Positions 20,946 to 59,608 of a stretch of 64,000 nucleotides of DNA are shown here, piece after piece. Location of the stretch: the NCBI RefSeq assembly GCF_003334815.1, contig NZ_QOWO01000016.1; one strand, 5' to 3'. Source of the DNA: Escherichia coli. GTDB taxonomy: Bacteria; Pseudomonadota; Gammaproteobacteria; Enterobacterales; Enterobacteriaceae. Every line of letters starts with the position of its first letter. Position 1 is the stretch's first letter. A program made the translations under genes and the position numbers. The notes beneath the pieces were generated by a model, which saw nothing but the letters and a program-made list of their open reading frames with translations, did no database searches and was not told the DNA's origin.

Positions 20946-21008
20946 CTAAGTAATCTTAGTTTTTATTGACCTAAGATAGATTGATAATTAACATCTAATA
21001 AAACTTAG
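20946..21008. promoter_or_regulatory. OR region: three ~14-bp operators spaced 24-25 bp apart, plus putative PR
   Basis: ctaagtaatcttag (20946-59), ctaagatagattga (20971-84, weaker) and ctaataaaacttag (20995-21008). PR is TTGACC (20966-71), 17 nt, TAACAT (20989-94). Confidence 0.55.
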
Positions 21009-21222: not shown

Positions 21223-21817
21223 ATCGATTAACAGAAACCACAGAACGATGAGGCTAACCGTGGGTAATCATCACTGGAAAATAGAAAAACAGCCTGTGTG
21301 GTACGTGAAAGCTGTCAGAAAAACTATCGCGGCGTTGCCGGGTGGTTACGCTGAAGCGGCTGACTGGCTCGATGTAACAGAAAACGCTTTATTCAACCGC
21401 CTTCGTGCAGATGGCGATCAGATTTTTCCGCTGGGATGGGCAATGGTTTTACAGCGTGCTGGTGGCACTCACTTCATTGCTGATGCTGTGGCGCAGTCTG
21501 CAAATGGCGTCTTTGTGTCTCTTCCTGACGTCGAGGATGTGGACAACGCCGATATTAACCAGCGTCTGCTGGAAGTCATTGAACAGATCGGCAGTTATTC
21601 AAAACAGATTCGTTCAGCAATCGAAGACGGTGTAGTGGAACCGCATGAGAAGACAGCAATTAACGACGAGCTGTATCTCTCAATTTCGAAGCTGCAGGAG
21701 CATGCAGCACTTGTCTACAAAATTTTTTGCATTTCAGAAAGTAATGACGCCCGCGAGTGTGCAGCTCCGGGCGTCGTGGCGTCGATTGCTTCTGGTTGTG
21801 GAGAAACTAACGCATGA
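21203..21817 (+). CDS. CII-like regulatory protein (putative)
   Basis: About 204 aa directly after cro. The assignment rests on position and loose resemblance to phage CII/CP76-type proteins. The start is uncertain (21203 or 21215). Confidence 0.4.
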
Positions 21818-22152
21818 ACAGTTTAACAACACACTACCGTCGCTCGCAACTGATTGCGCTTCCTGTACCGGGTGGAAAAGCGAAGGTGGAATATTGCTAT
21901 GCAGTGAATGTACCAGGTGACAGGGAAATTGTAACCCACAGCTTTGCAGAGTGGGCTGTGGGTGATTTCAACCGGCAGAAGGAGACAGTCCTTTGCGACA
22001 AGTTAACCGCTGGTTCAAAGATCACTACGGAGTGCCCGTCAGAGTCATTCGTTGGGAGCCGGAAACACAACGGGTTATCTACCTCCGCGAAGGTTATGAG
22101 CATGACTGCTTCAGTCCGCTCGAACAGTTTCGTCGTAAATTCAGGGAAATAG
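21814..22152 (+). CDS. Hypothetical protein; the 3' half is doubtful (see the alternative frame 21993-22172)
   Basis: 112-aa ORF. The second half is Ser-rich and unlike the first half. Confidence 0.35.
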
Positions 22153-22161
22153 AGGTCGGTC

Positions 22162-23103
22162 ATGAGCACTAAATTAACCGGCTATGTATGGGATGGTTGC
22201 GCAGCGTCAGGCATGAAATTATCCAGCGTGGCAATTATGGCCCGCCTGGCTGATTTCAGTAATGACGAAGGTGTGTGCTGGCCATCAATTGAAACCATTG
22301 CCCGTCAGATTGGCGCGGGGATGAGTACCGTCAGGACGGCTATCGCACGGCTGGAAGCAGAAGGCTGGTTAACGCGTAAGGCGCGTCGCCAGGGTAACCG
22401 CAATGCGTCGAATGTTTATCAGCTTAACGTTGCGAAGCTTCAGGCAGCGGCATTTTCTCAACTGTCAGATTCTGACCCGTCAAAATCTGACGCATCAAAA
22501 TCTGACCCGTCAAAATTTGATGCGTCGAAATCTGGCAAAAAAGCGGGTTTTCACCCGTCAGAATCTGGCGGGGATCCGTCAGTAAAATCAAAACATGATC
22601 CGTCAGATAAAAAAACTTCTCGTCCGGACGCTTCGCAACCGGACACGCAGAAGGCTGAACAGGATTTTTTAACTCGCCATCCTGATGCGGTTGTATTCAG
22701 CCCTAAAAAGCGCCAGTGGGGGACGCAGGATGATTTGACCTGCGCACAGTGGCTCTGGAAAAAAATCATCGCCCTGTACGAGCATGCCGCCGAATGTGAC
22801 GGCGAGGTGGTTCGTCCCAAAGAACCGAACTGGACAGCCTGGGCAAACGAAATTCGCCTGATGTGTGTGCAGGATGGTCGTACTCACAAACAAATCTGCG
22901 AGATGTACAGCCGCGTCAGCCGCGATCCGTTCTGGTGCCGTAACGTGCTCAGCCCGTCGAAGCTGCGGGAAAAATGGGATGAGCTTTCCCTGCGCTTATC
23001 GCCGTCCGTCAGCACGTACACAGAAAAACGCGAAGACCCGTACTTCAAAGCCAGTTACGACAATGTGGACTACAGCCAGATCCCGGCAGGATTCAGGGGG
23101 TGA
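22162..23103 (+). CDS. Replication initiator (O-like; N-terminal winged-helix, internal iterons)
   Basis: 313 aa with an N-terminal HTH (WPSIETIARQIGAGMSTVRTAIARLEAEGWL) and a repeat-encoded DPSKSDASKSDPSKFDASKS linker. Its position after cII is as in lambdoid phages. Confidence 0.7.
   Translation: MSTKLTGYVWDGCAASGMKLSSVAIMARLADFSNDEGVCWPSIETIARQIGAGMSTVRTAIARLEAEGWLTRKARRQGNRNASNVYQLNVAKLQAAAFSQLSDSDPSKSDASKSDPSKFDASKSGKKAGFHPSESGGDPSVKSKHDPSDKKTSRPDASQPDTQKAEQDFLTRHPDAVVFSPKKRQWGTQDDLTCAQWLWKKIIALYEHAAECDGEVVRPKEPNWTAWANEIRLMCVQDGRTHKQICEMYSRVSRDPFWCRNVLSPSKLREKWDELSLRLSPSVSTYTEKREDPYFKASYDNVDYSQIPAGFRG
22462..22612. repeat. Iteron array (putative ori) inside the initiator gene
   Basis: About seven copies of ccgtca(a/g)aatctg(a/g)c-like units, for example cccgtcaaaatctgac, gcatcaaaatctgac, ccgtcaaaatttgat, gcgtcgaaatctggc, cccgtcagaatctggc. 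Confidence 0.65.
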
Positions 23104-23594
23104 GCATGAGTCTTTTGAATGACGTTCAGAAATTCATTGAAGCCCATCCGGGCTGTACTTCCGGAGACATTGCGGATTCTTTTGCAGGTTACTCACGGCA
23201 GCGCGTTCTGCAGTCAGCAAGCAAGTTACGTCAGAGTGGGCGTGTGGCTCACCGTTGTGAAGGAGATACACGCAGACATTTCCCGCGCCTGACTGAGAGA
23301 GCGCAGGATCCGGAACCACAACCAGTTCGTGAAACCAGACCTGTGCGCAATTTCTATGTCGGCACTAACGACCCGCGGGTGATTTTGTGCCTGACCCGCC
23401 AGGCGGAAGAACTGGAGTCCAGGGGCTTATACCGTCGTGCTGCAACGGTGTGGATGGCGGCATTCCGTGAAAGCCACTCCCAGCCAGAACGAAACAATTT
23501 TCTGGCGCGTCGTGAGCAGTGCTTACAGAAAAGCAGCAAGCGCGCTGCATCGGGTGAAGAGTGGTATCTGTCAGGGAATTACGTGGGGGCTTAA
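23100..23594 (+). CDS. YfdN-like protein (winged-helix N-terminus), possible replication accessory
   Basis: 164 aa, translationally coupled to the initiator gene. Confidence 0.4.
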   Translation: MSMSLLNDVQKFIEAHPGCTSGDIADSFAGYSRQRVLQSASKLRQSGRVAHRCEGDTRRHFPRLTERAQDPEPQPVRETRPVRNFYVGTNDPRVILCLTRQAEELESRGLYRRAATVWMAAFRESHSQPERNNFLARREQCLQKSSKRAASGEEWYLSGNYVGA

Positions 23595-24247
23595 TGAGTA
23601 ATAAATATTGCCGGGCGCTGGTGGAACTGCGGAACAAACCAGCCCATGAACTGAAGGAAGTGGGCGATCAGTGGCGCACGCCGGATAACATTTTCTGGGG
23701 AATTAACACCCTGTTTGGTCCGTTTGTTCTGGATCTGTTCACTGACGGTGATAACGCCAAATGTGCCGCGTATTACACGGCGGAAGACAACGCGCTGGCG
23801 CATGACTGGTCAGAACGTCTTGCGGAGCTTAAAGGTGCTGCCTTTGGTAATCCCCCATACAGCCGCGCCAGTCAGCATGAGGGGCAATACATCACCGGCA
23901 TGCGTTACATCATGAAGCATGCCAGTGCCATGCGTGATAAAGGCGGGCGCTATGTTTTCCTGATCAAAGCTGCCACCAGCGAAGTGTGGTGGCCGGAAGA
24001 CGCAGACCATATTGCTTTTATTCGCGGGCGTATTGGTTTTGAACTGCCTGCCTGGTTTATCCCGAAGGATGAGAAGCAGGTGCCGACAGGCGCTTTCTTC
24101 GCTGGTGCTATTGCTGTTTTCGACAAGACCTGGAAGGGACCGGCAATCAGCTACATCGGGCGCGATGAACTTGAGGCATGTGGTGAGGCGTTTCTGGCGC
24201 AGGTTCGCCAGCAGGCGGAAAAACTGGTCAGGGAGATGGCGGCATGA
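23594..24247 (+). CDS. Phage DNA N6-adenine methyltransferase (Dam-like)
   Basis: 217 aa with the catalytic motif FGNPPYS. The TAATG overlap with the upstream gene marks the start. Confidence 0.8.
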   Translation: MSNKYCRALVELRNKPAHELKEVGDQWRTPDNIFWGINTLFGPFVLDLFTDGDNAKCAAYYTAEDNALAHDWSERLAELKGAAFGNPPYSRASQHEGQYITGMRYIMKHASAMRDKGGRYVFLIKAATSEVWWPEDADHIAFIRGRIGFELPAWFIPKDEKQVPTGAFFAGAIAVFDKTWKGPAISYIGRDELEACGEAFLAQVRQQAEKLVREMAA

Positions 24248-59195: not shown

Positions 59196-59608
59196 TTTAC
59201 CCTTCGTAGGCAGCATCCGGCAGTCGGCGCATAATGCCTGATGCGACGCTTGTCGCGTCTTATCATGCCTACAGGTTTGTGCCGAACCGTAGGCCGGATA
59301 AGGCGTTCACGCCGCATCCGGCAGTTGGCGCACAATGCCTGATGCGACGCTTGACGCGTCTTATCATGCCTACAAGTCTGTGCCGAACCGTAGGCCGGAT
59401 AAGGCGTTCAGGCCGCATCCGGCAGTTGGCGCACAATGCCTGATGCGACGCTGACGCGTCTTATCATGCCTACAAGTCTGTGCCGAACCGTAGGCCGGAT
59501 AAGGCGTTCACGCCGCATCCGGCAGTCGGCGCATAATGCCTGATGCGACGCTTGTCGCGTCTTATCATGCCTACAAGTCTGTGCCGAACCGTAGGCCGTA
59601 TCCGGCAT
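59196..59608. repeat. REP/BIME array (about 4-5 units)
   Basis: Repeated gcctgatgcgacgct..gcgtcttatcatgcctaca..gtgccgaaccgtaggccggataaggcgttcacgccgcatccggca units. Confidence 0.9.

Follow-up and report, generated by a model that had tools for sequence, protein, structure and literature searches.

That an origin of replication can lie inside the gene of its own initiator has been textbook knowledge since the work on lambda, phi80 and 82. In lambda, classic studies of lambda/lambdoid hybrids placed origin specificity in the N-terminal half of the O protein, and the iterons are spaced by roughly two helical turns. In the GenBank record of phi80 (JX871397), four gp15 binding sites are given, as annotation alone, in the middle of gene 15. 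In Stx-phage variants with six iterons, the extra iterons lengthen a stretch of O that serves as a linker and does not bind DNA (PMC7466680). Here, we analyzed an array of short repeats in the middle of a replication initiator gene carried by an Escherichia coli prophage, using a 64,000-nucleotide stretch of contig NZ_QOWO01000016.1 (RefSeq assembly GCF_003334815.1), which is referred to as the window throughout. We consider it probable that this array represents the iterons of the prophage replication origin and that the initiator which reads them is encoded by the very gene in which they lie. The prophage module is very common in E. coli; most likely, its origin is a previously undescribed one of known design, and the finding is confirmatory and not surprising.

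The gene, its domains and the repeats are arranged as follows, with the evidence in parentheses.

22162-23103, plus strand: replication initiator gene, 313 amino acids (aa) (list of open reading frames [ORFs]; PHROG 391 match; phage matches)
22162-22461, plus strand: N-terminal winged-helix DNA-binding domain (N-domain, aa 1-100), the presumed iteron reader (Pfam HTH_36; AlphaFold)
22462-22536: five contiguous iteron units of 15 base pairs (bp) (Tandem Repeats Finder; consensus matches; core pattern)
22537-22554: gap of 18 bp between units 5 and 6, AAAAAAGCGGGTTTTCAC (sequence)
22555-22569: sixth full unit, CCGTCAGAATCTGGC, with its core at 22558-22568 (consensus match; alignment of relatives)
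22573-22620: two GATCCGTCAG repeats at 24-bp spacing, each the left half of an iteron plus GATC (repeat search; stability; relatives)
22663-23001, plus strand: C-terminal domain (C-domain, aa 168-280), the presumed replisome-recruiting part (BLASTP to phi80 gp15)
22403-22585, plus strand, +1 frame: spurious 60-aa ORF (LTRQNLTHQNL...; LTRQNLTHQNLTRQNL), a by-product of the repeats (wholly inside the initiator gene)
22424-22591, minus strand: ORF, likewise a by-product of the repeats (ORF list)

The initiator and its two domains

Along its entire length, the initiator matches the PHROG 391 family, "replication initiation O-like" (E = 3.2e-135; protein 1-313, profile 1-298 of 298). At the DNA level, its gene is 99% identical to those of the Shigella serotype-converting phages SfIV (gp41) and SfII ("O protein family"), which share the module. 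Of 5426 complete E. coli genomes, 1576 carry the gene at a coverage of at least 80%. RefSeq names the product "helix-turn-helix domain-containing protein" and annotates no origin.

The structure of the protein was modeled with AlphaFold from 30 homologues. The N-domain, in which Pfam HTH_36 was matched at aa 23-70 (E = 4e-11), is predicted to consist of helices at residues 3-16, 20-31, 43-50 and 54-66 and a wing (70-73/85-88), with predicted local distance difference test (pLDDT) values of about 70-86. Across 10 N-domains the invariant residues are V57, in the helix 54-66, and R75, N81, S83, N84 and Y86, in or beside the wing. Foldseek against the PDB returned generic MarR/ArsR-type winged helices as the best matches for this domain, none at E <= 0.001, and a sequence search for relatives of solved structure gave weak MarR-type matches only (E about 0.008). 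The C-domain is modeled as helical (pLDDT 73-90) and matched no family in Pfam and no structure in the PDB by Foldseek; by BLASTP, aa 169-278 share 36% identity with phi80 gp15 (E = 4e-25). Between these two confident domains, residues 102-161 have a pLDDT below 50 and lack secondary structure, and this stretch predicted to be disordered is the peptide encoded by the repeats. With a disordered linker, a DNA function would be free to set the linker sequence at small cost to the protein.

Anatomy of the repeat array

The repeats occupy 22462-22614, or aa 101-151 of the 313, between the DNA-binding domain and the C-domain (limits taken from the structure model). Five units follow one another at exactly 15 bp; the 18-bp gap leads to unit 6, which is followed, at distances of 21 and 24 bp, by two left-half copies that start at 22573 and 22597. 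Each unit is built on an 11-bp palindrome, TCAGAWTCTGA, and the remaining four nucleotides vary among relatives. In units 1 to 5 the palindromic cores start at 22465, 22480, 22495, 22510 and 22525 and read TCAGATTCTGA, TCAAAATCTGA, TCAAAATCTGA, TCAAAATTTGA and TCGAAATCTGG, respectively. The gap comprises a run of six A and most of a small inverted repeat (CGGGT/ACCCG), the right arm of which reaches 22557, and it is partly conserved among relatives. The sixth unit is the best conserved, with one or two mismatches in each relative and an identical alignment block.

An earlier note, made from the letters of this DNA, had proposed about seven copies of a 15-16-bp unit within the initiator ORF, with a repetitive linker peptide and a spurious repetitive ORF as their coding products and an A-rich stretch behind them. 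The array itself is real. Tandem Repeats Finder called 22471-22534 as a period of 15 bp with 4.3 copies (81% matches) or, alternatively, of 30 bp with 2.1 copies (88%). The consensus given in that note, CCGTCAAAATCTGAC, was searched with up to three mismatches on both strands of the 64 kb and yielded nine matches, eight of them within the array; 100 shuffles averaged 1.81 matches, with five at most, and none reached nine. Six matches in the array region are on the plus strand (22462, 22477, 22492, 22507, 22522 and 22555), and the dyad symmetry is apparent from the copies at 22464/22465 and 22557/22558, which match on both strands. The only match outside the array, at 1588, is at chance level. 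The copy number needed correction, to five contiguous units, one further full unit and two partial ones. The other features were recovered as described: all units of the window lie in one reading frame (CCG TCA = Pro-Ser) and encode SDSDPSKSDASKSDPSKFDASKS, the spurious ORF spans 22403-22585, and the A-rich stretch, GATAAAAAAACT, is at 22605-22616.

On the minus strand, a hairpin followed by a T-run (CGGGTGAAAACCCG CTTTTTT) lies antisense in the gap between units 5 and 6, at 22557-22544. A scan of terminator-like sites found eight where 4.3 +/- 1.9 were expected, so this match is at chance level; as the scan gave nothing else within the array, a promoter or terminator within the array was dismissed.

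The palindromic cores also raise the question of a folded element in RNA or single-stranded DNA that would, for example, make translation pause, be an RNase site or signal priming through a hairpin. As a single strand, 22455-22625 folds much better than its shuffles (z = -5.3 as DNA, -6.2 as RNA), but such stability is expected from any array of palindromic cores. Across seven relatives the covariation term is unfavorable (+1.57), most pairs are between invariant core positions, and two to three of the seven sequences break those that involve the variable spacers (alignment columns 52-54); no Rfam family was matched. A structured element is therefore rejected as a by-product of the cores, and we give it hardly any weight.

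Constraint on the repeats as DNA

Six relatives carry an N-domain of the same type at 60-88% aa identity, namely Citrobacter phiNP, Klebsiella 1 LV-2017, KpF5, Escherichia Flotzy, Yersinia YeP2 and phiP27. For codons 101-150 (repeat region) and codons 1-98 (N-domain), the window was compared with each relative at positions of identical amino acids. Synonymous codon identity is 81-95% in the repeats and 33-47% in the N-domain (Fisher's exact test, P = 3e-8 to 1e-4 per pair, the six comparisons being non-independent). Amino acid divergence follows the opposite order and is larger in the repeats (16-55%) than in the N-domain (12-39%). Within the repeat region, 80 of 89 Ser codons are TCA or TCT and 41 of 42 Lys codons are AAA; every Ser codon is in use in the N-domain. 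In phiP27 the cores are spaced by 15, 15, 33 and 32 bp, and the fifth copy retains the DNA motif (CCTTCAGAATCTGGA) in another frame, so that TLQNLD is encoded instead of PSESG. Some sister arrays, moreover, have units of 23 bp, a period that cannot be that of a peptide repeat. The synonymous conservation, the out-of-frame copy and the 23-bp arrays together argue that the constraint acts on the DNA and not on the peptide alone; from these comparisons, the repeats are constrained at the DNA level beyond their coding role.

The same observations bear on the possibility that the repeats matter only as protein, as a flexible Asp/Pro/Ser/Lys linker produced by slippage and devoid of DNA function. 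A period of 15 bp does correspond to five codons, all copies in the window share one frame, the unit number changes in slippage-like steps, and the region is predicted to be disordered. Synonymous sites, however, are far more conserved than in the folded domain while the amino acids are less so, and to the frame-shifted phiP27 copy and the 23-bp periods is added the palindromic form of the units, which is meaningless for a peptide. A pure peptide repeat is ruled out by the codon test, the phiP27 copy and the 23-bp sister arrays, and the wider protein-only explanation is largely refuted already; its chance of being correct seems minimal.

Association of the repeats with the N-terminal domain

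Relatives of the initiator have exchanged its halves. The similarity of phiNP is confined to positions 2-479 of the initiator gene (83% DNA identity), with the same iterons and another C-domain (Pfam Phg_2220_C). Conversely, mEp460_4F5 shares positions 446-942 only and has another N-domain with six GGTCAAAATGAC-type units at a 23-bp phase, and SfV orf39 has a third N-domain with five GTGCA-N5-TGCAC units at 21-24 bp, which are also palindromic. This N-domain and the same iterons are thus found with three C-domains: the phi80-15-like one, Phg_2220_C in phiNP, and an SfV-like one in phiP27. The C-domains of Flotzy and YeP2 resemble that of phiNP, as judged from translations inspected by eye. The C-domain of the window, in turn, occurs with other N-domains and other arrays at the same site, with units of 23 bp, of 21-24 bp, of 21 bp, or of a different 15-bp sequence in Morganella.

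The species-representative genomes were scanned with the C-domain, which gave 23 loci with 18 intact genes plus a 5'-truncated one that keeps only a 12-bp post-iteron repeat (L186). Tandem Repeats Finder called a mid-gene tandem array in 15 of the 18 intact genes, and the unit length is particular to each type of N-domain (15, 21, 23 or 24 bp). From these comparisons, it is the N-terminal domain, rather than the C-terminal one, that the repeats accompany when modules shuffle. A first hint of finer co-variation between protein and site comes from a Morganella locus (L177) of the same N-domain lineage, belonging to a Morganella/Erwinia variant, in which the recognition helix reads TVTAAI in place of TVRTAI; the 15-bp phase is kept and the inner core is changed (TCAAATATTGA). 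This is a single anecdote.

The SfV orf39 and mEp460-type initiators belong to the same PHROG, occupy the same gene position, have the same or a related C-terminal tail and an array of their own in mid-gene, and share the "solo" layout in which a YfdN-like gene and a Dam gene follow. They differ from the initiator of the window in their N-domains and in their units, GTGCA-N5-TGCAC at 21-24 bp and the GGTCAAAATGAC type at 23 bp, respectively.

Relatives that otherwise retain just one half of the gene, left or right, have a short stretch of about 34 bp in common.

22607-22640: module joint, shared short stretch (phiNP matches positions 2-479 of the gene, mEp460_4F5 positions 446-942)

Its sequence, ATAAAAAAACTTCTCGTCCGGACGCTTCGCAACC, encodes ..KKTSRPDASQP, and it looks like a conserved joint for the exchange of replication modules.

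The way in which modules have shuffled also bears on whether the sites might be read by some other protein, such as a host factor, the cII-like regulator, or the downstream YfdN/PerC-like protein with its helix-turn-helix (HTH)-like N-terminal part. The GATCCGTCAG pair persists in Erwinia and Morganella relatives with different 15-bp units, which would fit a conserved reader such as SeqA or Dam. The arrays, however, change with the type of N-domain while the downstream genes stay (mEp460_4F5, SfV), Klebsiella phages with the same iterons lack the downstream YfdN-like gene, and no DnaA box with at most one mismatch was found in 21900-23300. A reader other than the initiator is accordingly judged very unlikely.

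Comparison with lambdoid and plasmid origins

Gene 15 of phi80 resembles the initiator gene of the window in its homologous C-domain, in its repeat array, which lies in mid-gene between the N- and C-domains, and in the A+T-rich DNA and a GATC that come after the repeats. It differs in its N-domain, which is Pfam Phage_rep_O (6e-25) rather than HTH_36, in its units (TTCCCGAAAACGGGAA type), which measure about 15-16 bp and are phased at 21 bp instead of being 11-bp palindromes at a 15-bp phase, and in the P-like gene 14 immediately downstream. In lambda, too, the iterons of the origin are dyad-symmetric, contain an A-tract and occupy the middle of the initiator gene (O), with an A+T-rich tract behind them. 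Compared with lambda O, the locus studied here has an N-domain of a different family, a 15-bp spacing, no P gene and a weaker A+T-rich part.

Whether the N-domain belongs to the lambda O family was examined by two approaches. The initiator gave no match to Pfam PF04492 (Phage_rep_O) at E <= 0.01, and a comparison of N-domain profiles by hhalign gave a probability of only 27% over 31 columns, covering the HTH only. Membership in PF04492 is thus not supported. The parallel with lambda ori inside gene O that the earlier note had drawn can be kept for the architecture, by comparison, and cannot be extended to full homology, as the N-domain is not of the Phage_rep_O type. The gene is better described as a domain-shuffled relative, half of whose protein comes from another family.

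Iteron plasmid replicons (RepA, pi, TrfA) also combine a winged-helix initiator with direct repeats and an adjacent A+T-rich unwinding region, and iterons vary in copy number there too (PMC4980987). Plasmid iterons, unlike the intragenic ones of this locus, are found outside the rep gene, usually together with DnaA boxes. No plasmid Rep family in Pfam was matched at its cut-off, the RP-C N-terminal domain scoring 17.2 bits against a cut-off of 24.4. Given the intragenic iterons, the lack of DnaA boxes at up to one mismatch within 21900-23300 and the RP-C score below cut-off, a plasmid iteron replicon of the RepA type was rejected.

Variation in unit number

Two scans of IMG/VR, with the N- and C-domains as queries, gave 160 nearly identical loci (L005-L164), which are informative on copy number only. 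The number of 15-bp units is polymorphic among prophages that are otherwise 98-100% identical (e.g., L042, L013 and L116): proteins of 308, 313, 318, 323 and 328 aa are encoded, and each locus has two to six plus-strand matches to the core pattern in its contiguous units. The distal part, consisting of unit 6 and the half-copies, is constant in copy number in this sample, barring point substitutions. A constant distal part beside variable 15-bp units suggests that three CCGTCAG sites, spaced by 21-24 bp, form a core to which an expandable auxiliary array is attached.

Such free variation between strains (308-328 aa), as for auxiliary sites, would also suit repeats that bind the initiator in a regulatory role, be it autoregulation, copy control by titration or handcuffing, or exclusion of related phages, with synthesis starting elsewhere. 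Plasmid iterons have control functions as well (PMC4980987), and the A+T-rich part of the locus is only moderate. On the other hand, the 64 kb hold no other cluster of the motif, only the chance-level match at 1588, and hence no second cluster that could be the real origin. The succession of N-domain, repeats, A+T-rich DNA and C-domain is common to phi80 gene 15 and fits lambda O, where this region is the origin, and a purely regulatory role fits the co-variation of modules poorly. We therefore regard it as unlikely, and favor an origin.

A candidate unwinding segment and the GATC pair

The least stable 30-40 bp of the initiator gene are at 22581-22621 (71-74% A+T), to the right of unit 6 on the promoter-distal side, where they overlap the two half-copies. 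This segment is a moderate candidate for the unwinding element.

In sister modules with 23-bp iterons (L003, 1470-1507; L175; L178-L181), a second short repeat, ACAGAGAATACA, occurs in 2.8-3.8 copies after the array and encodes TENTTEITTEN. It sits where the window has the A+T-rich segment.

Each GATCCGTCAG repeat contains a Dam site (GATC), at 22573-22576 and 22597-22600, 24 bp apart, the first at the edge of the least stable DNA and the second within it. The pair is kept in 10 of 11 relatives, comprising those of this N-domain type and a diverged Erwinia/Morganella variant with different 15-bp units. The 15-bp units themselves avoid GATC, with GAC being used for Asp before Pro. The phage has its own Dam methylase gene at 23561-24247, and the GATC pair and this gene together hint at methylation control of the origin.

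Operon context

The initiator gene is part of a lambdoid early-right operon. Following a cI-like repressor gene on the minus strand, the order is cro-like, cII/CP76-like, DUF4222, initiator and PerC/YfdN-like, and then Dam methylase, LexA-DBD-like (DNA-binding domain), RusA, KilA-N and DUF968. The PerC/YfdN-like gene (164 aa, with an HTH-like N-terminal part) starts at 23100 and overlaps the stop codon of the initiator gene, an arrangement that suggests translational coupling. One promoter-like site was noted upstream.

20966-20994, plus strand: promoter-like site, TTGACC, 17 nucleotides, TAACAT (between the cI-like repressor and cro-like genes)

The promoter scan found two sites where 3.9 were expected, and this one, resting on the consensus match and the gene order, is a weak candidate for the early rightward promoter that would transcribe through the initiator gene.

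Upstream of the initiator gene, two ORFs overlap in different frames (21814-22152 and 21993-22172). The 112-aa ORF is gp40 in the SfIV record, and the 59-aa ORF, with a match to Pfam DUF4222 (E = 5e-19), is the one annotated in E. coli genomes by RefSeq. These annotations are probably not both correct.

A remnant of the module is retained in E. coli K-12 MG1655 (NC_000913, locus L195), in the cryptic prophage CPS-53, and corresponds to 22397-23103 of the window. YfdO (122 aa; L195 2879-3247) is 98% identical to aa 192-313 of the initiator, and the full iteron array and the A+T-rich part lie upstream of yfdO, on the minus strand at about 3380-3520 of L195. The N-terminal DNA-binding domain has been deleted, leaving a putative orphan origin.

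Far from the replication module, at 59213-59598, the window has a 101-bp tandem repeat of 3.8 copies (95% matches) containing GCCGGATAAGGCGTTCACGCCGCATCCGGCA-like units, which looks like host intergenic repeats of the REP/BIME type.

Proposed mechanism and its assessment

The proposal that the array is the iteron part of an origin draws on the DNA-level constraint, the co-variation with the N-domain, the disordered linker, the A+T-rich segment and the gp15 sites of phi80, and all the comparative tests lend it good support. Under this proposal, the early rightward operon (cro-like, cII-like, DUF4222 and initiator) would be transcribed after induction. The N-terminal winged-helix domain would bind the 11-bp cores, five of them at 15-bp phase and the sixth past the gap, together with the two half-sites at 21-24 bp. 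The resulting nucleoprotein complex would stress and open the least stable A+T-rich DNA at 22581-22621, and the C-domain, as a homologue of phi80 gp15, would recruit the host replicative helicase. The peptide encoded by the repeats would be a disordered linker, its sequence dictated by the DNA function. That this initiator binds the repeats, that 22581-22621 unwinds, that replication starts here, and how the helicase is loaded are all points that we infer.

Several points weigh against an origin of this kind. No gene for P, gp14, or a DnaC-like or DnaB-like helicase or loader was found beside the initiator gene in the operon up to 26782, and without a loader gene it is not apparent what would perform one step of the lambda model; some relatives (phiP27) carry a DnaC-like gene. 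The sister arrays are phased at 21-24 bp and this one at 15 bp, or about 1.4 helical turns; lambda therefore cannot serve as the template for the geometry of the complex. The N-domain, too, is not that of lambda O. The A+T-richness of 22581-22621 is modest, and the segment ranks only within the least stable 3.3% of segments across the 64 kb. The repeats and the N-domain are physical neighbors, which partly confounds their co-variation. The logo of the core was built from matches chosen for similarity to it, which inflates its information content; the contrast of core and spacer is also plain in the raw alignment of relatives. Literature searches on yfdO, SfIV, SfV and phiP27 found no described origin and no experiment on the initiator module. 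The SfIV genome paper makes no mention of an origin.

A more specific version would make this a loader-less ("initiator-solo") lambdoid origin. The back-to-back 15-bp palindromic iterons would support a continuous array of initiators on alternating faces of the helix, the phi80-gp15-like C-domain would recruit the host helicase without P or gp14, and firing would be gated by the methylation of two GATC sites, nearly invariant and located in the unwinding region, which would be set by the phage Dam and read by host SeqA. We consider this version speculative and rather doubtful.

Implications

A named origin and its 11-bp core would provide a handle for annotating prophage origins and may serve as a starting point for small replicons. 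For prophages of one N-domain and iteron type that reside in the same cell, they would also give grounds for predicting incompatibility in replication or cross-activation. How a C-domain of the phi80-gp15 type works without a P-like partner is a modest question that is directly testable. The array would also be a clean natural example of a DNA element that overrides codon choice within a gene.

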